From assembly GCF_003334315.1 (NCBI RefSeq), contig NZ_QOWR01000018.1: 64,000 bases of DNA. The stretch is one strand, 5' to 3'. The notes beneath the pieces were generated by a model. The model saw only the letters and a list, made by a program, of their open reading frames with translations. It was not told the DNA's origin and did not search any database. A program made the translations under genes and the position numbers. Positions within the stretch are counted from its first letter, which is position 1; the number at the start of each line of letters is the position of its first letter. This document shows positions 1 through 57,483 of this stretch, piece by piece. The stretch comes from Escherichia coli (GTDB lineage Bacteria; Pseudomonadota; Gammaproteobacteria; Enterobacterales; Enterobacteriaceae).

Positions 1-109
1 AGGCAGCACCTGGCACGGCTGGGACGGAAGTCGCTGTCGTTCTCAAAATCGGTGGAGCTGCATGACAAAGTCATCGGGCATTATCTGAACATAAAACACT
101 ATCAGTAAG

Positions 110-1308
<1,199 letters not shown>

Positions 1309-1350
1309 TTATAGCACAGTGGTGGTGACTTGACCATCGTGCGCGTAGTG

Positions 1351-2652
1351 TCAAGCAGAGGTAAATTGCGGGATGTTATGCCATAACGGCCAGCTAAACG
1401 AGAAGCGGGCACCACCCAGTTCGCTGGTGCCACAATTAACCGTACCGCCCATTGCCAGTGCTATAGAGTGGACAATTGCCAGTCCCAGCCCGCAGCCGCC
1501 GGTTGAGCGACCCCGGCTGGGATCGAGGCGAACAAAAGGTTCAAAGATATGTTCGCGGTTTTCTGGGGCAATCCCTGAGCCATCATCCTCAACAATTAAT
1601 GTCGCTTTATTCCCCGACAGTAGCAGGCTGGTTTCAACCGTTGAATGGCAGTAGCGCAGGGCGTTATTGAGCAAATTATCCAGCACGCGCTCCATTAAGC
1701 GCATATCCAACGCCGCATAATGGCCTTGCATGAGCGTTTTTATCCGTACCGTTTTATCGGGCGTTACTGCCTGAATATCTGCCAGATGCGTTGACAGCCA
1801 CAACGGCAGGTCTGGTTCGCTAAGATGAAGCTCGTTTTGTGGGCGATCGAGTCGGGCATAAGTCAGCAGCTCTTCAATTAAAGCTTCAAGTTGACTGATA
1901 TCACGATTCAACGCCTGGGATTCGGCGGCGCTCAGGTTATCGCTCATCTCCAGTCGATAACGCAGGCGCACTAACGGTGTTCGCAGTTCGTGAGCGATAC
2001 CGTCAATAAGCTGTTTTTTGCTGGCAATTAAGGCGTTGATATTGTCCGCCATCTGGTTAAATGCGACGCCAAGTCGTTCAAAGCTCGAACCCTCATCAAA
2101 GTGAATACGTTCATTGAGATGCCCATCGCCAAATCGTTGCGCCGCTGCTTCCAGTTTTAACATATCCTGCCAGTGCGGACGCATCCAGATAAACACCGGA
2201 AAGGCGAGGGAAATAGCAATAAAAGCGATCAGGGCGATATCCAGCAATCGCATCTGATGGAGATAATAAAGATAAGGAACAGGACCAACTGCCAGCACGT
2301 AGTGGCTGCGCGGGATACGCTGCAAAAACGTGTACTGATCGTCCAGGGCGACAATTTCGCCGCCACGCAGTCGGTGCATGGAAATATCATCAAGATGGTA
2401 TTTACTCAGTGGCTCGACACGCAGATCGAAAGAGAGATTTAAATCCATCTCTTTCAGCGTCTTACCCCAGTCGTGTGGGGGGATCTCACGCAATTCGCTG
2501 CGCATCAGATACAGCGAACTGTTCATCAAATCATCCAGCGACTGTTTGCCCGCGCGTTCGGCGGTAAATTTGTACACCAGCCCAACCAGCAGAGACATCA
2601 CAAGGAAGCAGACAAACAATAACAGGTAAAACTGGATAAACAATTTTTTCAT
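1351..2652 (-). CDS. rstB: sensor histidine kinase RstB
   Basis: 433 aa ORF with N-terminal transmembrane segments, HAMP region and HisKA/HATPase motifs; synteny with rstA. Confidence 0.92.
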   Translation of the reverse strand: MKKLFIQFYLLLFVCFLVMSLLVGLVYKFTAERAGKQSLDDLMNSSLYLMRSELREIPPHDWGKTLKEMDLNLSFDLRVEPLSKYHLDDISMHRLRGGEIVALDDQYTFLQRIPRSHYVLAVGPVPYLYYLHQMRLLDIALIAFIAISLAFPVFIWMRPHWQDMLKLEAAAQRFGDGHLNERIHFDEGSSFERLGVAFNQMADNINALIASKKQLIDGIAHELRTPLVRLRYRLEMSDNLSAAESQALNRDISQLEALIEELLTYARLDRPQNELHLSEPDLPLWLSTHLADIQAVTPDKTVRIKTLMQGHYAALDMRLMERVLDNLLNNALRYCHSTVETSLLLSGNKATLIVEDDGSGIAPENREHIFEPFVRLDPSRGRSTGGCGLGLAIVHSIALAMGGTVNCGTSELGGARFSFSWPLWHNIPQFTSA

Positions 2653-2655
2653 CGC

Positions 2656-3375
2656 TTATTCCCATGCATGAGGCGCAAAAAGATAGCCTTTGTTACGCAC
2701 GGTTTTAATGCGATAAGGTTCTGCGGCGTTATCGAGTAGTTTTTTTCTTAACCGCGAAATAGCCACGTCCACGCTACGATCCAGTCCGTCATAACTGACG
2801 CCGCGTAAATTTTTCAGCAATGCATCGCGGTCCATGATTTGCCCGGCATGGGTAGCTAATTCCCACAATAATTCGAAATCAGCTGTCGAGAGCGAGATTT
2901 CAGTGTTAGCCAGGGTGACTACGCGGTTGATGGGATCGATGGTCAACGTGCCGAAATGCAGGGCTTTGTAGGGAGTCAGAGACGTTTCCTGAAGACCTTT
3001 GGTCAGTGTGGCTTGCTCATTCTGACGCAAATGCAAACGTAAACGCGCTAGCAAAACAGCAGGGGGCGTCGTTTTGAGAATATAGTCGCAGGCACCCATT
3101 TCCAGTGCCAGGATGTGGTTCATATCGCTATCGAGAGAGGTTAGAAGAACAATCGGTCCAGACCACTTTGCGCGTAAATCACGACAAATGGTCATGCCGT
3201 CCTTGCCTGGTAGCATGATGTCGAGTAACACCAAATCCGGATTTTCTCGCAAAATGGTTTCTTCGGCCTGGTCGCCGCGCGGCTCTACGGTAACCTGCAT
3301 ATCATGTTTTGCCAGGTACGCGGCAATCAGTGAACCGACTTCCGCATCATCTTCCACAAATACGATAGTGTTCAT
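2656..3375 (-). CDS. rstA: response regulator RstA (OmpR family), start trimmed to MNTIVFVEDD
   Basis: Receiver domain plus winged-helix C-terminus; 239 aa from the internal ATG. Confidence 0.9.
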   Translation of the reverse strand: MNTIVFVEDDAEVGSLIAAYLAKHDMQVTVEPRGDQAEETILRENPDLVLLDIMLPGKDGMTICRDLRAKWSGPIVLLTSLDSDMNHILALEMGACDYILKTTPPAVLLARLRLHLRQNEQATLTKGLQETSLTPYKALHFGTLTIDPINRVVTLANTEISLSTADFELLWELATHAGQIMDRDALLKNLRGVSYDGLDRSVDVAISRLRKKLLDNAAEPYRIKTVRNKGYLFAPHAWE

Positions 3376-3503
3376 AACATTCACGGTAGATATAAAAACG
3401 TCACAATACACCGCGCTGTTTTTACTTACTATCAATCGTTTCTAAACAAGTTTTCATCAGGTATTCTACTGATGACTTGTTATGGAAGTGTTAAGGTAAA
3501 AAG

Positions 3504-3839
3504 ATGGGGCTGGTAATCAAAGCCGCGCTCGGTGCGCTGGTAGTGCTGTTGATTGGTGTTTTAGCAAAAACGAAAAATTATTATATCGCCGGGCTGATTC
3601 CACTTTTCCCGACCTTTGCGCTTATCGCGCATTATATTGTTGCCAGCGAACGCGGCATTGAAGCCTTACGCGCAACCATCATTTTTAGTATGTGGTCGAT
3701 TATTCCCTATTTTGTTTACCTGGTGTCGCTGTGGTATTTCACCGGAATGATGCGCTTGCCCGCCGCTTTTGTTGGTTCTGTTGCGTGTTGGGGGATAAGC
3801 GCATGGGTGTTGATTATATGCTGGATAAAGCTGCATTAA
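3504..3839 (+). CDS. ydgC: inner membrane protein YdgC (GlpM family)
   Basis: 111 aa hydrophobic ORF; K-12 synteny. Confidence 0.85.
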   Translation: MGLVIKAALGALVVLLIGVLAKTKNYYIAGLIPLFPTFALIAHYIVASERGIEALRATIIFSMWSIIPYFVYLVSLWYFTGMMRLPAAFVGSVACWGISAWVLIICWIKLH

Positions 3840-4558
3840 CGCAGATGACGACCGCCATCAAGTGGGAAACTGCGTCCGGTGACAAAGCAACTGGTAAGTA
3901 AGTAATCGACCAGGTCGATCACTTCTTTCTCGCCAGGCGCGGTTTTCATCAGTGATTTATTCAGCGCCTGTTGTCGATATTCGGCATCATCATGTTCATT
4001 AAACAGGATCAGCGATGGCGCAATAGAATTCACTTTCACTTCCGGTGCCAGCTTGCGGGCAAACGAGCGGGTCATATTATCCAGTGCCGCTTTGCTTGCA
4101 GCATACGCAATATGTTTGTCGCTACCGCGCTCCACCACATAATCGGTAAAGTGAATGATATCGCTGGCGGCGTGTCCGTGCCCACGCAGTAATCTTTCCA
4201 GCGCATGGTTGAGCAGGTATGGGGTATTAACGTGGATCTGCATCATGCAAGCCAGTACGTCGGCCAGTGGCGCACCCGGTTTTTCCGCCATCCACGCACT
4301 GGCGTTATGCAAAATAGCACGCAGACCATGGGTGCTTTTTAGTACTTCATCGGCAAACGCCATCACACCGTCGTTGGTCGAAAAATCAGCCTGAATACAC
4401 TGCGCACCTGCATTAATCAGTCCATCAATGGCTGGATAGTGTGTCCGATAGCTGACAATCACCGGTTGCTTTTGATTAATGAAATGCCATGCGAGGGCGA
4501 GGCCGATGCGACGACCTCCGCCAGTAATTAATATTGGCAAGGGCTGGGTTTTACCCAT
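3836..4558 (-). CDS. folM: dihydromonapterin/dihydrofolate reductase FolM (short-chain dehydrogenase)
   Basis: 240 aa, N-terminal TGGGRRIG Rossmann motif; synteny. Confidence 0.9.
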   Translation of the reverse strand: MGKTQPLPILITGGGRRIGLALAWHFINQKQPVIVSYRTHYPAIDGLINAGAQCIQADFSTNDGVMAFADEVLKSTHGLRAILHNASAWMAEKPGAPLADVLACMMQIHVNTPYLLNHALERLLRGHGHAASDIIHFTDYVVERGSDKHIAYAASKAALDNMTRSFARKLAPEVKVNSIAPSLILFNEHDDAEYRQQALNKSLMKTAPGEKEVIDLVDYLLTSCFVTGRSFPLDGGRHLR

Positions 4559-4594
4559 CGTTATCTCCTTTGCTATCCAACGATGGGATGAACG

Positions 4595-5977
4595 TTATCC
4601 CACCAGCATCCAGGTCGCCGGAACTGAGGCAATTAACAGCATGCCAATCAGCACCATTTCCTGACGGTTCAGTACATTATCATGGGTATGCGTTTTGCGC
4701 GCGTACAGGAAAACCAGCAGCCCCGGTGCATACAGAACAACGGATAACAGCAAGTGCATTGGACCAGAGGCGTACAATAACCATAAGCCATAAATGCAGG
4801 CACCGACACCTACCGCTTTATGCAGTGGACGGGTTGCGATTTTCAGCAAGAACGCGCCGACCAGGAAATAGGGCACCAGAATCATTTCTGAGGCGATGGT
4901 CAGCAACGTGTTGTAATCGGAACCGGTCAGCCAGATGAGTACCAGACAAATTTGCACGCAGATGTTGGTCAACCACAGTGAGGCGGATGGCGCAGCTTGT
5001 GCGTTCTGGCGCGCAAAAATGCGCGGGAATGCTTTATGAGTGGCGGCCAGGAACGGTACTTCTGCTGCCATGATGGTCCAGCTTAAGTACGCGCCGCAAA
5101 CGGAAACGATCAAACCGGCAGCGATGATGATTTCGCCCCATGGTCCCATCATTTCCACCATCAGACCGGCCATTGACGGGTTACGAATTTCAGCCAGTTC
5201 AGGACGTGCCACCACACCCAGCGAAAGCAGCGTTACCAGCAAGTAAACGCCCAGAGCGGAGAGAACCGCCAGCAGTGTCGCTTTGCCAACATCACGTTTA
5301 TTACGCGCACGCGCAGAAACAACCACGGCACCTTCCACACCAATGAAAACCCACAGGGTGATCAGCATGGTGTTTTTCACCTGTTCCCAAACGGGTACGC
5401 CAAGTGCAAGTCCGGTGAAGTCGAGCTTGAAGGTATCCAGTTTGAACATCATCATCGCCAGCACAACAAACAGACCCAGCGGCAACAATTTTGCCAGTGT
5501 CGCCACCAGGTTAATGCTGGCAGCGGTTTGCACCCCGCGCAGGATCAAAAAGTGAACAATCCACAATAAAGCCGATGCACCGACTATCGATTGCCAGGTA
5601 TTACCATCGCCAAACAGGCGCAATTCCGGCGTGTCCGTAAAAAAGCTTAACGCGGAAAAAACGATCACCAGATAGGAGACGTTGGCGATGACTGCGCACA
5701 GCCAGTATCCCCATGCGGAACAAAAGCCGATTAGCTCGCCAAACCCTTCGCGGGCATAGGTAAAGATACCGCCGTCAAGTTCGGGACGAATGCGCGTGAG
5801 GATCAGCATGGCAAAGGCCAGCAATAAAATGCCAGCGCCAGTAATACCCCAGCCGATGAGCAGTGCTGCCGGGCTGGCAACTGCCGCCATATTTTGCGGC
5901 AGACTGAAAACACCCGCGCCCAGCATTGAGCTTAATACCAGCGCGGTGAGTGCGCTCAGTCCCAGTTTCTTTTCCAT
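4595..5977 (-). CDS. ydgI: APC-family amino acid antiporter YdgI (arginine/ornithine antiporter-like)
   Basis: 460 aa polytopic membrane protein; synteny. Confidence 0.88.
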   Translation of the reverse strand: MEKKLGLSALTALVLSSMLGAGVFSLPQNMAAVASPAALLIGWGITGAGILLLAFAMLILTRIRPELDGGIFTYAREGFGELIGFCSAWGYWLCAVIANVSYLVIVFSALSFFTDTPELRLFGDGNTWQSIVGASALLWIVHFLILRGVQTAASINLVATLAKLLPLGLFVVLAMMMFKLDTFKLDFTGLALGVPVWEQVKNTMLITLWVFIGVEGAVVVSARARNKRDVGKATLLAVLSALGVYLLVTLLSLGVVARPELAEIRNPSMAGLMVEMMGPWGEIIIAAGLIVSVCGAYLSWTIMAAEVPFLAATHKAFPRIFARQNAQAAPSASLWLTNICVQICLVLIWLTGSDYNTLLTIASEMILVPYFLVGAFLLKIATRPLHKAVGVGACIYGLWLLYASGPMHLLLSVVLYAPGLLVFLYARKTHTHDNVLNRQEMVLIGMLLIASVPATWMLVG

Positions 5978-6162
5978 CGATATCCAGTGATTAAAACGTG
6001 ATAAGAAGAATAAATATTAGGGCAAAACGCATAAAAATGGAGTTTGCCACTGAAGCGCGGAATTTTACGAAGAGATGTGTCTGCATGCAATGGTCGCGGG
6101 GAAATTTGTGACTAAAAATGCGAAAGGCGGCATCAAGCCGCCTTATAGGAGTAACTGAATAG

Positions 6163-7107
6163 TTATTTATACAGATCTGCGCTGACGGTCAGGTTATTAC
6201 CACGTTCCTGCCACTGGCGGGTGATGTGGTAATACTTAGCACCTTTCTTCGCGGCACGTTTCGCAACCTGATAGGAGACTTCGGTCATGTTGCCGTAGTT
6301 GCCAGAGAATTTGATGCTGTCGAACGGGACCATCATCGCTGCGGTCGCTTTGTTCAGTTCTTCGACTTTAGTGCCATCCGGGAGCGTGACGGTGTAACGC
6401 CCACCTTTTGATGACTGGGTTTCAAAGAAGCGACCGACTTCAGAACTTGGTGATGCGGTAGTCGCAACACCCGGGATCTCAACTTTCTTCGCGGCTTCGC
6501 CACCGGCAGCCAGAGCTGCACGTCCTGCTTCGGAATCTGCCGGGATCACATCCGGGCTCTGGACGATACGTTTCTTAGCATCTTTTTTATAGATGAATGC
6601 AGTAATACGCTGGTTGCCGCCCTGGTTGGCATCGATTTGACGAACGATGTAGAAAGAGTAGGCACCTTTCGCTTTTGCCGCTTTGGTGATGGCATCATTG
6701 ACTTCTGGCTGGCTACGATAGAAGCCCTGGACGGTGACCGTGTCAAACGGTTCAATCAGAACAGCCTGATCTTTCGGCAGTTCGACAACACCGTTAATTA
6801 CGCGATTACTTGTTTCTTCTGCTTTTTCAGCATCGGCTTTATAGAGGTCAGCGACCACACGCCAGTTACCGCTGTTACCAAAATCAGAAGTGTCGACAAC
6901 ATAAAAAGAGGTGGCACCTTCTTTATCTGCGCGACGAGAAACGGCTTTCACCGCTTCGCCAATAGCATTAAAACGACCGGTAACCACTACACGGTCAAAA
7001 GGTTTAACCGCTGCCGCTTGCTCCGGTGTCAGTTCTGTTGCTGCGTTAACGGAGAATGCCGTAGCAGAAAGCAGTGCCGACGCCAGGAGGGTGTTCTTAA
7101 GCTTCAT
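6163..7107 (-). CDS. ydgH: periplasmic protein YdgH (tandem DUF1471 repeats)
   Basis: 314 aa with signal peptide and internally repeated segments; synteny. Confidence 0.85.
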   Translation of the reverse strand: MKLKNTLLASALLSATAFSVNAATELTPEQAAAVKPFDRVVVTGRFNAIGEAVKAVSRRADKEGATSFYVVDTSDFGNSGNWRVVADLYKADAEKAEETSNRVINGVVELPKDQAVLIEPFDTVTVQGFYRSQPEVNDAITKAAKAKGAYSFYIVRQIDANQGGNQRITAFIYKKDAKKRIVQSPDVIPADSEAGRAALAAGGEAAKKVEIPGVATTASPSSEVGRFFETQSSKGGRYTVTLPDGTKVEELNKATAAMMVPFDSIKFSGNYGNMTEVSYQVAKRAAKKGAKYYHITRQWQERGNNLTVSADLYK

Positions 7108-7567
7108 AAAAATAATCCTTCGCCTTGCGCAAACCAGGTACTGGTATTGTTATTAACGAGAAACGTGGCTGATTATTGCATTTAAACGGTGTAACTGTCT
7201 GCGTCATTTTTCATATCACATTCCTTAAGCCAATTTTAATCCTGCTCAAATGACCGTCTATGCTTAAAAAACAGCCGTATCAGCATCATTACTACTGAAG
7301 CAACTGAATTGTATAAGTTAATTTAATGTTAAGTAGTGATTCGTGCCGGGGCGATGTCTCGTTTTACCCGACCGTCGAAGACAATTATCAGTCTTTATCC
7401 GGCGTTCTAAGGTGTTTATCCCACTATCACGGCTGAATCGTTAATATTTTGCGAGTTCACGCCGAAATACTGATTTTTGGCGCTAGATCACAGGCATAAT
7501 TTTCAGTACGTTATAGGGCGTTTGTTACTAATTTATTTTAACGGAGTAACATTTAGCTCGTACATGA

Positions 7568-9163
<1,596 letters not shown>

Positions 9164-9170
9164 GGGGTAA

Positions 9171-10562
<1,392 letters not shown>

Positions 10563-10566
10563 CCCT

Positions 10567-10598
10567 GACGGCCTCTGCTGAGGCCGTCACTCTTTATT
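10567..10598. terminator. hairpin terminator between convergent pntB and tqsA
   Basis: GACGGCCTC-tgctg-AGGCCGTC stem-loop followed by T-rich tract. Confidence 0.5.
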
Positions 10599-11621
10599 GA
10601 GATCGCTTAACAGAACGGCGATGCTTTGACCTCCCGCTGTTTGTTCAAGCGCAATTTTGACAATAATTGTCAACGGCACGGAAAGCAGCATACCCACCGG
10701 TCCTAACAACCATCCCCAAAAAATCAACGACAAAAATACCACCAATGTGGAAAGCCCCAGCCCACGCCCCATGATACGCGGCTCCAGAATATTGCCGAAG
10801 ACCAGATTAATCAGCAGATATCCCGCCAGCACCAGCAACGCTTCGTAGAAGCCATTAAACACCAGTACCTGAGCGATAGGGGGGATTGCCGCGAGGACTG
10901 AACCAATATTCGGGATGTAATTAAGCGCAAAGGCCAGCAATCCCCAGACAAAAGCGAAGCGAACATCGAGTGCGGCGAGCATCGCCCAGGCGACCAGGCC
11001 GGTGATGATGCTGATGGCTGTTTTCAGCACCAGATAATGAGAAACACTGTCAATCGCACGTTGAATCGCCGCCATCCCTTCAACCGGACGCGCCATCATT
11101 TGCTGAAATTTTCCGGGCAATTGTGGCACTTCGAGCAGCATAAACAGCACCGTCAGCAGCAATAAAAATATTGATGACATGGCATTAGATAACTGCGTCA
11201 ATAAGTTGGTGAGCAACGTCATCGCCGCGTTCGGATCAATATAATGCGCCAGCTGGTCAACTGAGACGTCAATCCCTACGCGTTGCAACAACGGTTCAAG
11301 CGCTTGCAGCGGCGTCATAATAGAGTTGCGATATTGCGGTAACGTCCGCGTCAACTCGTTGAGCGCGGAACCCAGATAAGCTAATAGCAACACCATCGCC
11401 ATCACGATGATGGTCATCAAAATCGACACCGCCAGTACACGCGGCACACGCCAGCGGACCATGTGTTGCACCAGCGGGTTAAGAATAACAGCAATAAATA
11501 ATGCGAGAATAAACGGCACGATGATCTCGGCGGCAAAACGGATACCGCAGAGAATAATGACCAGCATTCCCAACATAATGACGATTTTTAGGCCATTGAG
11601 CGTGATGATCGGCTTTGCCAT
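10587..11621 (-). CDS. tqsA: AI-2 transport protein TqsA (YdgG), AI-2E family
   Basis: 344 aa polytopic membrane protein; synteny. Confidence 0.88.
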
Positions 11622-32825: not shown

Positions 32826-34121
32826 TTAATTTTTCATTGCTTCGTTATGGGGCATGGTTGGGGCAAACTCGCTTAACTGTGTATTTAACAAAGCTACCTG
32901 TGCATTATTGTTTTCAGACATCCATTTTCCGTATACCTGAAATACCATTTGCGCATCTGCATGGCCCATCTGGTTTGCTATAAATGCCGGGTTAGCACCA
33001 GCTGTCAGCGACCAGCAGGCATAAGTATGTCTCGACTGATATGATTTTCGATGGCGGAGTCCGGCACGTTTTATCGCTGCGTCCCACATCTGCCTTATTG
33101 AGTCAACGGTAAAATGGTCACCATAATTTTTTACTCTCGCTGACACTTCAGGTTGAAAAACAAAGGTGCATTTTTGTTTTTCTGTTCTGCCATACTCTCT
33201 GAGGTGAACATCAATGATATGCTCTTTGCTCAGTCTCGTTAATGTCATCTGGCTCCGGAGAGCGTCGATTGCTGGCTTAATAAGATGAATGACCCGATTG
33301 GTTCCCGCCTGTGTTTTTGGTACCGTGAAACGGTCTTTTGCTAAATTTCTCCTGATCATCATTGTTCCATTTTTCAGATCTATGTCCTCCCATCCAAGTG
33401 CACACAGCTCACCAGGGCGAACGCCAGTATAAACAGAAACACACCATAAATTTTTTGCTTGCTGATTTCTGCACGCATCGATAAGACGGATAAATTCCTC
33501 CCGCGAAAGAGGATCCGGAATGGTTCTTGATTCCTTTAATGGCGAGATCCCCTTAAGCGGATTATCTGGCAGGTAACCGTTATCAACACCAAACTGGAAC
33601 ACGGCGTTAAGATTTGTCATGTAATTATTTACAGTTACAGCCGATCGCCCTGGTTGTGTAACAATATAGTTACTTTTGGGGATCTGGTATCCAGTCAGTA
33701 GCTCTTTACGAACCTCCAGTAATTTTTCTTTATTAATCGATGAGGCAAGATTTTTTTCACCGATTATGCTCAGGATATTTTTGATGACGGCACGGTATGT
33801 GTTGAGTGATGTTTTGGCGACTTCAGTTTCTTTCAGTGCCAGAAATTTTTCAGCCAGTTCTTTTATGGTTAAATCTTGTCGGGCCTCACCAAATTTTTCC
33901 AGATTGCGTGAGGAGGGAAACTGTTTTGCATAGTCGAAAACACCAGTTTTTATTGCGTAACAAACAGAGGAGCGTAGTTCACCTGCAACGCGCCTGTTTT
34001 TTGCTGTGTCAGGAACCCCCAGATTTTCCCTGACTCTTACGCCTTTATAAACAAACCAGATACGTAATTTCCCTCCATGGTTTTCCACGCCTGTCGGATA
34101 TTTCATTTCAACTTCTCTCAT
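32826..34121 (-). CDS. phage integrase, tyrosine recombinase (probable start at MKYPTGVENHGG)
   Basis: C-terminal catalytic motifs (R...HxxR...Y region: RHRKSYQSRHTYACW); sits at the prophage edge. Confidence 0.85.
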   Translation of the reverse strand: MREVEMKYPTGVENHGGKLRIWFVYKGVRVRENLGVPDTAKNRRVAGELRSSVCYAIKTGVFDYAKQFPSSRNLEKFGEARQDLTIKELAEKFLALKETEVAKTSLNTYRAVIKNILSIIGEKNLASSINKEKLLEVRKELLTGYQIPKSNYIVTQPGRSAVTVNNYMTNLNAVFQFGVDNGYLPDNPLKGISPLKESRTIPDPLSREEFIRLIDACRNQQAKNLWCVSVYTGVRPGELCALGWEDIDLKNGTMMIRRNLAKDRFTVPKTQAGTNRVIHLIKPAIDALRSQMTLTRLSKEHIIDVHLREYGRTEKQKCTFVFQPEVSARVKNYGDHFTVDSIRQMWDAAIKRAGLRHRKSYQSRHTYACWSLTAGANPAFIANQMGHADAQMVFQVYGKWMSENNNAQVALLNTQLSEFAPTMPHNEAMKN

Positions 34122-49648: not shown

Positions 49649-50676
<1,028 letters not shown>

Positions 50677-52394: not shown

Positions 52395-52601
52395 ATGCAT
52401 AAAGATCAATACACTGATGCCCCCTCCCAGGAGCAGGTTCGTGTAAAAACTATGCTTAATAGCACCATTTCGATGGGTTACCCGGATGTTGTAATTGCAT
52501 GTATAGAACATCAAGTGTCTCTGGAAGCATTCAGGGCAATTGAGGCCGCGTTAGTAAAGCACGATAAGAATACGAAGGATTATTCCCTGGTGGTTGACTG
52601 A
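52395..52601 (+). CDS. hypothetical protein (68 aa)
   Basis: ATG with GGAG RBS about 10 nt upstream. Confidence 0.4.
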
Positions 52602-52966
52602 TCACCATAACTGCTAACCATTCTGACCATTTCACAAGTGACAGAGTCAATATCGTATTCTGTCACTGTCAGGCTAATACAGCAATGCAATTCAACTACA
52701 GCAATGCCTCGTATTTAGGTGAATTTACAATATCGTCCAGTTCGGATGCCGGCTGCATTTCTGAAGATAAGGCATTTCGGTTCTCGTATTTTCCCCTCAT
52801 GCTCGTCAGTCCTGCGCGTAGTAAGAGACAGGACACTCACACTAATTTGTGTGGGCATGCTGTGATGTCCTTCTGAATTATCCCCATGCCATTATGTAAA
52901 GCTCTGTTACAGATGCTCGTCACGGTTGTCAGGCTGTCGGGTCCTCCCAGTGGGGGGCCCTGCCAC

Positions 52967-52984
52967 GGGGCGGGAGCGTCGCGG
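52967..52984. other. candidate cos site (cosN-like) upstream of terminase
   Basis: ACG-GGGCGGGAGCGT-CGCGG resembles lambda ACG-GGGCGGCGACCT-CGCGG; lies about 170 bp before the terminase small subunit start. Confidence 0.5.
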
Positions 52985-53151
52985 AAAAAGGCTAGTTTTT
53001 GCATTTCCATGGTGGCGGCAGCATGTTTGGTAATTTATTGATAATTAAAAGTTATTTCTCTTTTCAGCTGTACAATATTTTTTTCTCCCTGTCATTAGAC
53101 TAGTTTGCAATTAATTGAAATATATAAATAAACCTGATTTTCACCTGCCAG

Positions 53152-53691
53152 ATGGAGTTGCTTATGTCAAATGTGAGCGGGATCGGTGATGCTTATTACT
53201 GGAGTGTTTTTAAAATCGCCGAGGCCTTTGGGCTTCACCGGGACACAGTAAAAAAACGGCTCCTCGCGGCCAACACTCCTGTGGCTGCGACTGTCAGGGG
53301 GAACCCCGTTTACGCCCTGCAGCATGTCGGGCCTGCCCTGTTTAGTGTGAAGCATGAGGCAGCAGACTCTGTTCATGATCCATCCCGTATGGAGCCGAAA
53401 GAGAGAAAGGACTGGTACCAGTCGGAAAATGAAAGGATCAAGTTGGAAAAGGAGCAGCGAAAACTCATCCCCGTTGATGAAGTAGTCATCGTCTATTCGT
53501 CCATGAGAAAGGCTGTCGTCCAGGTTCTGGAGACAATTCCGGATGTTCTTGAACGCGATTGCGCCCTGACTCCTCAGGCCGTTGGCGTTGTACAGCAGGC
53601 CATTGATGACCTGCGATACACTCTTCAGGAAAAATCCTACGAGGCTTGTGCTGCTGAATTAATTCCTGATGAGGAAGGAGAGAGTCTCTAG
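53152..53691 (+). CDS. terminase small subunit (Nu1-like)
   Basis: Position and size; N-terminal HTH-like region; followed immediately by the large subunit. Confidence 0.7.
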   Translation: MELLMSNVSGIGDAYYWSVFKIAEAFGLHRDTVKKRLLAANTPVAATVRGNPVYALQHVGPALFSVKHEAADSVHDPSRMEPKERKDWYQSENERIKLEKEQRKLIPVDEVVIVYSSMRKAVVQVLETIPDVLERDCALTPQAVGVVQQAIDDLRYTLQEKSYEACAAELIPDEEGESL

Positions 53692-53699
53692 GAGGAATA

Positions 53700-55799
53700 A
53701 TGGGTTTTTCATCAGCCCGAAATTTGGGAAGGGACATATCGGCAGGATTTTCCCCACCACGTCGCATGCCGATTTCGGAGGCTGTTAAAAAATTCATGCG
53801 TGTTCCCAAGGGGGCTGGTAACTCGGTGCCATGGGATCCTGAACTGACACCCTACATCATTGAGCCCATGAACTGCCTGGCATCGCGTGAATACGATGCG
53901 GTGATTTTTGTTGGTCCTGCGCGAACAGGGAAGACCATTGGTCTGATCGATGGATGGATTGTCTATACCATCGTTTGCGATCCTTCGGACATGCTCGTTG
54001 TGCAGATGACCGAAGATAAGGCCCGCGAGCATTCAAAAAAGCGCCTCGACAGAACGTTCAGAAGCAGTGCGGCGGTAAAGAAAAGAATGAGTCCACGTCG
54101 TAATGACAATAATGTCCATGATAAGACGTTCAGGGATGGCTCGTTCCTTAAAATTGGTTGGCCCTCGGTCAACATTATGTCGTCGTCGGATTACCGGTTT
54201 GTCGCCTTAACCGATTACGACCGTTTTCCGGAGAATATCGACAGCGAGGGTGATGGTTTCTCCCTGGCCTCAAAACGTACCACCACATTTATGTCCGCCG
54301 GGATGACTCTGGTGGAGAGCTCGCCGGGACGTGACATCTGCGACAGCAAATGGCGACGTAAGTCGCCTCATGAAGCGCCACCGACGACTGGTATTCTTTC
54401 CCTTTACAATCGTGGTGACCGCCGCCGCTGGTACTGGCCATGTCCGCACTGCGGTGAATATTTTCAGCCAGCCATGGATGCCATGACCGGCTACCGTAAT
54501 GAACCGGATCCCTTTAAAGCCAGTGAGGCGGCGTATCTACTTTGCCCGCACTGCAGCGGCATTATCACTGCGGAGAAAAAGCGTGAGCTCAATAGTGCAG
54601 GAGTCTGGTTGCGTGAAGGTCAGGTCATTGATTGTAACGGCAACGTTTCCGGTGAACCGCGCCGCTCCCGTATCGCCAGTTTCTGGATGGAAGGGCCAGC
54701 TGCTGCGTATCAGACCTGGGCGCAACTGGTTTACAAATTACTGACTGCAGAACAGGAGTATGAAGCGACAGGAAGTGAAGAAACACTCAGGGCGGTTATC
54801 AACACCGACTGGGGATTACCTTATCTTCCCCGCGCCAGCATGGAGCAACGAAAAAGTGAACTGCTTGAGCAGCGGGCAGAGCCAGTTCCTTCCCGCAGTG
54901 TGCCAGATGGCGTTAATTTTCTTGTGGCGACAGTGGATGTGCAGGCGGGACGTCATCGCCGTTTTGTGGTTCAGGTAACGGGCTATGGCAGCCGTGGCGA
55001 ACGCTGGATTATTGATCGTTACAACATCACGCAGTCATTGCGCGGTGACAGCGACGGGGAGAGCCAGCGAATTGATCCGGCCAGCTATCCGGAAGACTGG
55101 GATGTCCTGCTGACGGATGTTTTTCATAAAAGCTGGCCGCTGGCCTCCGATCCTTCTCAACAAATGCGACTGATGGCAATGGCGGTGGACTCCGGCGGTG
55201 AAGACGGGGTCACTGATAATGCCTATAAATTCTGGCGTCGTTGCCGTCGTGATGGCCTTGGTAAACGTATTTACCTGTTTAAGGGCGACAGCATCCGGCG
55301 CGCAAAACTGATCACCCGTACATTCCCTGATAACACCGGACGAACGGGCCGACGGGCGCAGGCCGCAGGTGATGTGCCGCTCTGGCTTCTTCAGACGGAT
55401 GCACTGAAAGACCGGGTGAATAACGCGTTATGGCGTGACTCGCCAGGTCCCGGCTATGTGCATTTCCCTGACTGGCTGGGGAGCTGGTTTTACGACGAAC
55501 TGACGTATGAAGAGCGGAGCAGTGACGGGAAATGGAGTAAGCCGGGTCGCGGTGCCAACGAAGCTTTTGACCTGATGGTGTATGCCGAGGCTCTGGTCAT
55601 TCTGCATGGATACGAAAAGATCCGCTGGCCGGATGCACCGGAGTGGGCGAGCCGGGAAACCTGGCTGGAGTGTGTCCCGGACAGTACCGAACCGTCATCC
55701 TCACCGGAACCGGTATCCACGCCTGTTAAAAAACAAAAACGGAAGAAAACAGTAACTGACGATGTTAACCCCTGGCTGACTTCCGGAGGATGGTTATGA
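53700..55799 (+). CDS. terminase large subunit (gpA-like)
   Basis: 699 aa; Walker A-like GPARTGKT; GGAGGA RBS. Confidence 0.85.
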   Translation: MGFSSARNLGRDISAGFSPPRRMPISEAVKKFMRVPKGAGNSVPWDPELTPYIIEPMNCLASREYDAVIFVGPARTGKTIGLIDGWIVYTIVCDPSDMLVVQMTEDKAREHSKKRLDRTFRSSAAVKKRMSPRRNDNNVHDKTFRDGSFLKIGWPSVNIMSSSDYRFVALTDYDRFPENIDSEGDGFSLASKRTTTFMSAGMTLVESSPGRDICDSKWRRKSPHEAPPTTGILSLYNRGDRRRWYWPCPHCGEYFQPAMDAMTGYRNEPDPFKASEAAYLLCPHCSGIITAEKKRELNSAGVWLREGQVIDCNGNVSGEPRRSRIASFWMEGPAAAYQTWAQLVYKLLTAEQEYEATGSEETLRAVINTDWGLPYLPRASMEQRKSELLEQRAEPVPSRSVPDGVNFLVATVDVQAGRHRRFVVQVTGYGSRGERWIIDRYNITQSLRGDSDGESQRIDPASYPEDWDVLLTDVFHKSWPLASDPSQQMRLMAMAVDSGGEDGVTDNAYKFWRRCRRDGLGKRIYLFKGDSIRRAKLITRTFPDNTGRTGRRAQAAGDVPLWLLQTDALKDRVNNALWRDSPGPGYVHFPDWLGSWFYDELTYEERSSDGKWSKPGRGANEAFDLMVYAEALVILHGYEKIRWPDAPEWASRETWLECVPDSTEPSSSPEPVSTPVKKQKRKKTVTDDVNPWLTSGGWL

Positions 55800-56008
55800 A
55801 CCAGAATGATATCGAAGCCATGATTCAGCGTTATACGGAAGCTGAAATGGCGGTGCTGGACGGAAAATCCGTCACCTTTAATGGTCAGCAGATGACCATG
55901 GAAAACTTATCTGAGATCAGGCAGGGACGGCAGGAGTGGGAGCGCCGCCTTGCGGCTCTGATTACACGACGACGGGGGCATCCCGGGTATCGGCTGGCGA
56001 GGTTCTGA
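55796..56008 (+). CDS. head-tail joining protein gpW-like
   Basis: About 70 aa ending ...RRRGHPGYRLARF, similar to the lambda W C-terminus; ATGA overlap with terminase. Confidence 0.65.
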   Translation: MNQNDIEAMIQRYTEAEMAVLDGKSVTFNGQQMTMENLSEIRQGRQEWERRLAALITRRRGHPGYRLARF

Positions 56009-57483
56009 TGGCAATTCTTGATGATGTGATTGGCGTTTTTTCACCAGGATGGAAAGCGGCAAGGCTGCGTTCCCGTGCGGTGATCCAGGCTTATGAGGCC
56101 GTAAAAACGACGCGGACACACAAAGCCCGACGGGAGAACCGAACTGCCGACCAGTTAAGCCAGTACGGGGCCGTGTCGTTACGTGAGCAGGCCCGTTACC
56201 TTGATAACAACCACGATCTGGTTATTGGTGTATTTGACAAGCTGGAAGAACGGGTGGTGGGGAAAAACGGGATTATTGTCGAGCCACATCCGGTATTACG
56301 CAATGGGGCCATTGCCCGTGACCTGGCTGCGGAGATTCGCACCCGATGGAGTGAATGGTCTGTCAGCCCGGAAGTCACCGGGCAGTTTACCCGTCCGATG
56401 CTGGAACGTCTGATGCTTCGTACCTGGCTGCGCGATGGTGAGGTGTTTGCCCAGATGGTTTCCGGGCGCATAAACAGCCTGACGCCTTCTGCCGGTGTTC
56501 ATTTCTGGCTGGAGGCGCTCGAGCCGGACTTTATTCCCATGACCAGTGATGAGAGCAACAGGCTGAATCAGGGCGTGTTTGTTGATGACTGGGGGCGTCC
56601 CGAAAAATATCTGGTGTATAAAAGTCGTCCTGTATCCGGACGGCAGATGGAAACCAAAGAAGTGGATGCAGAGCGAATGCTGCATCTTAAATTTGTTCGC
56701 CGTCTGCACCAGATGCGCGGGACGTCTTTATTGTCCGGTGTGCTGATCCGCCTCAGCGCCCTGAAAGAGTATGAAGATTCTGAGCTGACTGCAGCAAGGG
56801 TCGCCGCTGCTCTGGGGATGTACATCCGCAAAGGCGACGGACAGAGCTATGAAACGGATGGTAATGACAGCAAGGAGAATGAACGCGAGCTTACCATTCA
56901 GCCAGGCATTATTTACGACGATCTGAAACCCGGCGAAGAAATCGGAATGGTGAAGTCGGATCGCCCAAATCCTAACCTTGAAACTTTTCGTAATGCTCAG
57001 TTGCGTGCCGTGGCGGCGGGCAGTCGTCTGAGTTTTTCCAGTACAGCGCGCAACTATAACGGCACTTACAGCGCCCAGCGTCAGGAGCTGGTTGAATCCA
57101 CTGATGGCTACCTGATCCTGCAGGACTGGTTTATTGGTGCCGTCACCCGCCCGATGTATCGTGCCTGGCTGAAACAGGCTGTGGCATCCGGTGTTATCAG
57201 GCTACCCCGCGATCTTGACCGTTCTTCACTGTATACCGCGGTGTATTCCGGACCGGTGATGCCGTGGATTGACCCTGTTAAGGAGGCTGAGGCCTGGAAA
57301 ATCCAGATTCGTGGTGGAGCGGCGACAGAATCAGACTGGGTACGTGCAGGTGGTCGTAATCCGGATGATGTCAAACGTCGGCGCAAGGCCGAAATTGATG
57401 AAAACCGCAAGCTGGACCTGGTATTTGATACCGATCCGGCCAGTGATAAAGGAGGCAGCAGTGCCGCAACGAAACGACAGTAG
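56008..57483 (+). CDS. portal protein
   Basis: 491 aa ORF between W and the protease/capsid gene; TGATG overlap with W. Confidence 0.75.
   Translation: MAILDDVIGVFSPGWKAARLRSRAVIQAYEAVKTTRTHKARRENRTADQLSQYGAVSLREQARYLDNNHDLVIGVFDKLEERVVGKNGIIVEPHPVLRNGAIARDLAAEIRTRWSEWSVSPEVTGQFTRPMLERLMLRTWLRDGEVFAQMVSGRINSLTPSAGVHFWLEALEPDFIPMTSDESNRLNQGVFVDDWGRPEKYLVYKSRPVSGRQMETKEVDAERMLHLKFVRRLHQMRGTSLLSGVLIRLSALKEYEDSELTAARVAAALGMYIRKGDGQSYETDGNDSKENERELTIQPGIIYDDLKPGEEIGMVKSDRPNPNLETFRNAQLRAVAAGSRLSFSSTARNYNGTYSAQRQELVESTDGYLILQDWFIGAVTRPMYRAWLKQAVASGVIRLPRDLDRSSLYTAVYSGPVMPWIDPVKEAEAWKIQIRGGAATESDWVRAGGRNPDDVKRRRKAEIDENRKLDLVFDTDPASDKGGSSAATKRQ

Follow-up and report, generated by a model that had tools for sequence, protein, structure and literature searches.

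Lambda-like phages are defined by 12-nt 5' cohesive ends that resemble those of lambda (Feiss et al., PMC4669245). Selection in these phages acts on the left half of the overhang, the CG dinucleotides flanking the nicks and the 7-bp cosQ, which is highly conserved, and leaves free bp 7-12, where differences are common, e.g., at positions 9 and 12 in N15 and at 8, 9 and 11 in Gifsy-1 (PMC4669245). Mutations in cosN's right half have little effect because the small terminase subunit (TerS), bound at cosB, anchors the large subunit (TerL) there (PMC4669245). Phage Tritos, i.e., prophage 3 of Escherichia coli LF82, forms virions and plaques (PMC9928086) and, together with phages cdtI and HannyBb, is 98-99% identical to the locus described here over positions 52700-53700 of the window, the stretch of 64,000 nucleotides of E. 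coli DNA (contig NZ_QOWR01000018.1) that we analysed.

The locus belongs to a prophage (~32640-64000) which adjoins rspB, at the position held by the cryptic Qin prophage in K-12, and has its right end beyond the window. Its integrase (~32826-34106, minus strand) lies ~20 kb to the left of the site, which is preceded by a lambdoid early region and lysis genes. Tritos 1-11044 runs colinear with 52968-64000 of the window, the two being 98-99% identical. The records of both cdtI (AB285204 / NC_009514) and Tritos (OV696610) start at the equivalent of 52968 and end in ...CCACG; the start of the Tritos record probably reflects annotation by homology. Window positions 1264-50284 are 99.3% identical to E. 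coli 13P460A, and by the annotation of that near-identical genome the prophage carries dicB, ydfD, hokD, rem and cold-shock genes.

We consider it very probable (about 0.92), judging from the sequence, that 52938-53151 is the cos site of a cdtI/Tritos-type lambdoid prophage and serves a lambda-like packaging mechanism. Sequence homology, gene neighbourhood, family-wide conservation and coincidence with the starts of phage records are all observed at the locus. The site is of an already known type, and two public phage genomes already begin with its sequence. The features are collected in the following table.

Table. Features of the predicted cos site and the adjoining terminase genes (window coordinates; bp are counted from the predicted top-strand nick)
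Feature	Position	Strand	Remarks
Whole cos unit, cosQ-cosN-cosB	52938..53175	+	extent shared with PICI-like islands
cosQ heptamer GGGTCCT, termination signal	52939..52945	+	identical to the lambda heptamer
16-bp cosN, CG + 12 bp + CG	52966..52981		CGGGGCGGGAGCGTCG; both CG flanks as in lambda
Predicted 12-nt 5' cohesive end GGGCGGGAGCGT	52968..52979	+	from lambda homology and cdtI/Tritos record starts
cosN-proximal conserved block CGCGGAAAAAGGCTAGTTTTTG	52980..53001	+	near-invariant in DUF1441-type cos sites
Candidate TerS-binding site, R3 equivalent, CCATGGTGGCGGCAGCATG	53007..53025	+	bp 40-58; predicted
IHF consensus TATCAATAAATTA (WATCAANNNNTTR)	53031..53043	-	exact match, bp 64-76 from the nick; predicted
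Distal AT-rich cosB to the terS start	53044..53151	+	conserved in window-type cos sites and five satellite copies
terS, small terminase, 179 aa	53152..53691	+	Pfam DUF1441 (PF07278), E = 2e-44; alternative start 53164
terL, gpA-type large terminase, 699 aa	53700..55799	+	phrog_15, E = 0; predicted cosN nickase and packaging ATPase

The sequence ACGGGGCGGGAGCGTCGCGG is present in a single copy in the window, at 52965-52984 on the plus strand. The annealed lambda junction, rebuilt from both ends of J02459, reads ...GGGTCCTTTCCGGTGATCCGACAGGTTACG/GGGCGGCGACCT/CGCGGG..., and the flanks ACG and CGCGG in the window are those of lambda at ACG/GGGCGGCGACCT/CGCGG. The core GGGCGGGAGCGT is identical to the lambda 12-mer at 8 of 12 positions, with mismatches at exactly 7, 8, 9 and 11; bp 1-6 (GGGCGG) are the same in both and all core differences fall in the right half. 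At the level of sequence the predicted cosN follows exactly the pattern of variation described in PMC4669245. No other 20-mer of the window comes within five mismatches of lambda cosN, and at up to four mismatches 0.03 hits per window are expected by chance (mononucleotide shuffles; 20-mer alone). The resemblance to lambda cosN named in the original prediction, with identical flanks and about four changes in the core, is borne out by the J02459 junction, as is its location in a G-rich segment: G makes up 44% (27/61) of 52930-52990, in a window of 48.7% G+C.

From homology, a variant overhang of 12 nt would be produced by nicks at 52967/52968 in the top strand and 52979/52980 in the bottom strand. 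Both predicted nick positions are flanked by conserved CG dinucleotides (aCG/GGGCGGGAGCGT/CGcgg), which stand 12 bp apart as in lambda. The 16-bp cosN has rotational symmetry at 8/16 bp, compared with 10/16 in lambda and ~4/16 by chance, and the CG flanks account for 4 of the 8. A full-text literature search with the 11-mer GGGCGGGAGCG returned only unrelated papers on G-quadruplexes and primers.

The distance from cosQ to the nick is 22 bp in the window and 23 bp in lambda. To place such features in a wider family, IMG/VR viral contigs were scanned for GGGTCCT-N17-22-CACGGGGCGG, with the cosQ heptamer as a fixed anchor. The survey set comprised at least 120 IMG/VR loci which, with the window and loci from phage records, gave at least 133 sites, or 134 with lambda. 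Among the matches listed, 103/133 sites have the 22-bp spacing and most retain the right flank CGCGG, while the right half of the overhang occurs in 26 variants, of which that of the window is the commonest (35/133). Again among the matches listed, an open reading frame of 120-260 aa starts 40-420 bp past the nick at 101 of the 134 sites, and 93 of these 101 match a small terminase by BLAST (79 DUF1441-type, 14 Nu1-type). The segment from cos to terS has matches in 2203 of 5426 complete E. coli genomes, in 624 of them over most of its length.

The surveyed sites also present cos as a mosaic joint: a given left arm, e.g., ACGCTCTCATTTGTGCGGGTCCTTCCGGTGGGGTGGCCTGCCACG, is joined to at least five different overhangs and to right arms of the Nu1 as well as the DUF1441 type, and the 12-mer of the window is found with at least three different cosB types.

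To the right of cosN, the 167 bp from 52985 to the start codon of terS (52985-53151) are 69% A+T. The cosN-proximal block CGCGGAAAAAGGCTAGTTTTTG (bp 13-34) is common to DUF1441-type sites with differing TerS and cosB types, and by this near-invariance it is probably not the specificity determinant. For the next segment, bp 34-62, the type of site pairs one-to-one with the helix motif of TerS in the DUF1441-type sites that were compared. The helix HRDTVKKR, which is that of the window, goes with GGYGGCGGCAGC at the candidate site and GGYGGCGGCAGCATG over bp 34-62, and HRQT helices go with triplet-repeat sites of the CATCAT or CACCAT type, e.g., GTCATCATCATCAT and GGCACCATCACCACC. On account of this pairing we propose the element at bp 40-58 as the TerS site equivalent to R3, although the pairing could also arise because site and gene are physically linked. 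Its position is comparable with that of R3 in lambda (bp 50-65) and in N15 (bp 48-60). In this element the window copy has a T at 53013, within GGTGG, where five of six sampled relatives have a C.

Between bp 59 and 420 the bp 40-58 element did not recur above chance in either orientation, the best match being 10/19 against a shuffle mode of 11. Nor was the lambda-type repeat set R3-I1-R2-R1, with R2 inverted, found in cosB, which holds weak short repeats only; one example is AGGCTAGTTT / AGACTAGTTT, 108 bp apart, of which the second copy reads AGACCAGTTT in most relatives. Without a second element, a lambda-style R3-R2-R1 cosB is not supported, and a simple, N15-like cosB is possible. The IHF consensus is not peculiar to the window: of the 105 distinct homologous cos sites among the matches listed, 40 have it at +61 to +64 on the strand that carries it here, and the background rate is 0.016 per 200 bp.

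The original prediction had placed the site about 170 bp upstream of a Nu1-like terminase gene. The distance is accurate, as the motif ends 167 bp and the predicted nick lies 184 bp before the ATG at 53152, while the likeness to Nu1 holds for remote homology and architecture and not for Pfam family. Pfam assigns the window TerS to DUF1441 only, its sequence does not match the Phage_Nu1 profile (PF07471), and BLASTP detects no similarity between it and Nu1 (E = 4.6). The PHROG families do connect the two: TerS matches phrog_141 'terminase small subunit' at E = 4e-65 and cross-matches the Nu1 family phrog_57 at 1e-9, and Nu1 matches phrog_57 at 1e-76 with a reciprocal cross-match to phrog_141 at 6e-8. 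In addition, small alignments of DUF1441-type and Nu1-type proteins are colinear by hhalign over 142 columns from the N-terminal helix-turn-helix (P = 9e-4). A sequence search of the PDB with the TerS of the window and that of the islands described below gave no relatives. The window TerS is 100% identical to those of cdtI and Tritos, and the PGAP label 'DUF1441 family protein' here means small terminase. A literature search for DUF1441 and terminase gave phage-genome papers, none of which, in the parts available, appears to concern this type of cos site.

TerL is homologous to lambda gpA (24% identity over 627 aa, E = 7e-22) and is followed by a W-like adaptor, the portal and a ClpP-protease/capsid fusion. 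With lambda the locus shares the order cosQ, cosN, cosB, terS, terL, the cosQ heptamer, the left half of the overhang, the CG flanks and an IHF site in cosB. It differs in overhang positions 7, 8, 9 and 11, in the 22-bp spacing and the DUF1441-type TerS, in the repeats that were not found and in its proximal block, which reads A5...T5 where lambda has T4...A4. The locus departs from the lambda paradigm only in its DUF1441-type TerS and apparently simple cosB, both of which many known lambdoid phages have as well.

Like the simple cosB of N15, with its single R3 site (Feiss et al. 2015), that of the window has one apparent candidate TerS site, placed between cosN and terS at a similar distance from the nick. 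However, the TerS of N15 is Nu1-type and its site is unrelated in sequence, and N15 has an accessory inverted copy inside terS, an equivalent of which was not found in the window. The putative cos sites of mEp213/LLS and mEp460 have the same architecture, cosQ, flanks and proximal block, with TerS ~41% identical to that of the window. They differ in the recognition-helix motif of TerS and in the bp 34-62 site, which implies a different packaging specificity. The overhang of mEp460, GGGCGGGAGCGG, is one base off that of the window, and for LLS and mEp213 an overhang of GGGCGGCGCGCT has been predicted. The '5' extended cohesive site' annotated on the LLS record was considered as experimental support and rejected, since its authors state that it was inferred (PMC12315714).

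The mEp460_4F5 record (LR595868.1; end of L007, start of L010) has its break 5 nt left of where the nick is predicted, and the junction CCACGGGGCGGGAGCG-CGG has 3 nt fewer within the overhang than mEp460 (...GAGCGGCGCGG). A real variant may lie behind this, or an artefact of assembly where the DNA physically ends. With the 5-nt offset and the 3 nt missing from the overhang, the break was uninterpretable as a physical end and was discarded as such.

Compared with cdtI and Tritos themselves, the overhang, flanks and cosQ of the window are identical and cosB is 97-98% identical. The window has a few substitutions in the spacer between cosQ and cosN and in cosB, including the T for C in the candidate TerS site, and its copy is an integrated prophage with a portal 11 residues shorter.

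These comparisons lead us to propose a mechanism in which the nick positions, the binding of TerS and IHF and the activity of the window's own prophage are predictions. On induction, the DUF1441-type TerS would bind cosB, the likely contact being the G/C-rich candidate element, aided by a bend that IHF would introduce at its adjacent site. Bound TerS would position the gpA-type TerL on cosN, and TerL would make the two staggered nicks to leave 12-nt 5' ends of GGGCGGGAGCGT. Packaging would then run rightward through the head and tail genes and stop at the next cos on the concatemer, with cosQ needed for the terminating cut. Such a reading fixes the predicted left end of the virion map for a packaging module that is very common in E. 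coli prophages and has little import beyond annotation, and the predicted ends are useful for the design of end-mapping, cos-plasmid and transduction work with phages of the Tritos/cdtI type.

The strongest rival to this reading, though still an unlikely one, is that the site is a cos by descent which has gone unused since this prophage copy became defective. A codon of the portal gene that reads GAG in Tritos is TAG here (57481-57483), so that the protein ends ...ATKRQ* instead of ...ATKRQEPQHTDDQSEE* and loses its last 11 residues; the T-for-C change lies in the candidate TerS site; and the tail fibre and the attR end fall outside the window. In the near-identical prophage of 13P460A an IS3 element interrupts the Rz-region gene annotated DUF2514, which indicates that decay of this prophage lineage does occur. 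In the window, however, Rz (50179-50676) is intact, as are all other visible lysis, head and tail genes, and the region from the predicted nick to the end of the window is nearly identical to a plaque-forming phage. The cos subsites of the window copy are undamaged, and at least 10 complete E. coli genomes carry a cos-terS segment that is 100% identical.

Less likely still is a working cos whose nicks lie off the lambda-homologous positions, giving another overhang length or register. Overhang length varies in the wider group: the Cylindrospermopsis phage Cr-LKS3, whose DUF1441-type TerS is 38% identical to that of the window, is reported to have 5' cohesive ends GGGCTCGCG of 9 nt with lambda-like flanks (PMC9303873), and a range of 7-12 nt is quoted there from Vahanian 2017. 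Stx-phage, VT1-Sakai and CP-1639-type cos sites have only 10-11 nt between CACG and the CGCGGAAAAA flanks (GGGCGGGCGG(G); e.g., L012:1501-1565, L013:1501-1575 and the similar IMG/VR loci L021, L024, L077 and L078), a spacing that suggests shorter overhangs or a shifted right nick and is consistent with the quoted range. Gifsy-2 of Salmonella LT2 (L138:200-430, NC_010393) departs from the family pattern, with a degenerate cosQ, GGTACTC in place of GGGTCCT, and 14 nt (GGTGGCTTCGGGCT) between CACG and CGCGGG. Against such a shift in the window, its CG flanks stand exactly as far apart as in lambda and the first base of the cdtI and Tritos records is the lambda-homologous one. The record of Hafnia phage yong2, which has a DUF1441-type TerS, starts exactly at CGCGGGAAACGG, the base after the overhang (homologous bp 13), and ends 34 nt past a GGGTCCT. 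The cohesive-end reading of the original prediction is supported by the starts of the cdtI and Tritos records at the predicted top-strand nick, by the start of the yong2 record just after the overhang, by the ends reported for the distant relative Cr-LKS3 and by the lambda-like features of the sequence.

We give almost no weight to the idea that the cos belongs to a satellite (PICI) which takes over the terminase of a helper phage, since, even though the cosQ and cosN of PICIs are nearly those of their helpers and PICI-like islands with the cosB of the window exist, the site is followed by a full set of terS, terL, adaptor, portal, protease-capsid and tail genes colinear with Tritos, and is preceded by lysis genes within a prophage that has its integrase ~20 kb upstream, whereas a PICI cos precedes rpp or a lone terS in a small alpA/primase island with an incomplete set of virion genes. 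A chance G-rich resemblance, or conservation owing to an overlapping small open reading frame (52837-53010, minus strand, or 52886-53041, plus strand), is hardly credible either: such frames, called mechanically, do overlap cos and several phage records annotate a 'hypothetical protein' across the homologous region, but the chance expectation is 0.03 and conservation starts exactly at cosQ and the upstream flanks of homologous sites are unrelated, so that both frames are truncated, boundaries which argue that neither is a gene.

The satellites lead to a question of wider interest than the cos site of the prophage itself. PICIs with two cos sites are known, e.g., EcCICFT073, and the reason for the second was stated to be open (PMC6739421). 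Like the window, islands of this type have a lambda-like cosQ and cosN; unlike it, they are ~10 kb elements with alpA and a primase and without full virion genes, whereas the window site lies in a complete-looking morphogenesis module. The matches listed include six PICI-like islands (IMG/VR loci L015, L066, L077, L090, L100 and L102), which encode an AlpA-like regulator, a primase and an SSB. They are laid out as a first cos, a ClpP-protease/capsid fusion, a second cos, a DUF1441-type terS and a 95-aa open reading frame (e.g., L015:5760-9291). A distance of 2535-2537 bp separates the two cos sites and is kept even in the diverged L077, whose capsid is only 62% identical.

Out of 52500-53700, five of the islands (L015, L066, L090, L100 and L102) share with the window the stretch 52938-53175 alone, which matches their first cos at 90-92% identity. 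The homology begins at cosQ and ends ~20 nt into terS, as expected for a self-contained packaging signal. The match in L077 is confined to the cosQ-cosN core (52938-53012; 78%). The second cos of the five islands with a window-type first cos matches the island's own TerS type.

A tentative and, on balance, rather doubtful extension of the main reading is that the cosB of the window defines a packaging specificity of its own (HRDTVKKR helix, a single (GGY)n-type site and IHF, without R2 and R1) which the islands copy as their first cos. If it is true, prophages of the cdtI/Tritos type, including that of the window, would be helpers of these islands, and if each island cos addresses a different helper terminase, this would answer the question of Fillol-Salom et al. 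2019 about two different cos sites. The satellite copies of the window cosB bear in this way on the choice of helper by PICIs. With the island itself as query, coverage reaches 80% or more in 178 of the 5426 E. coli genomes.
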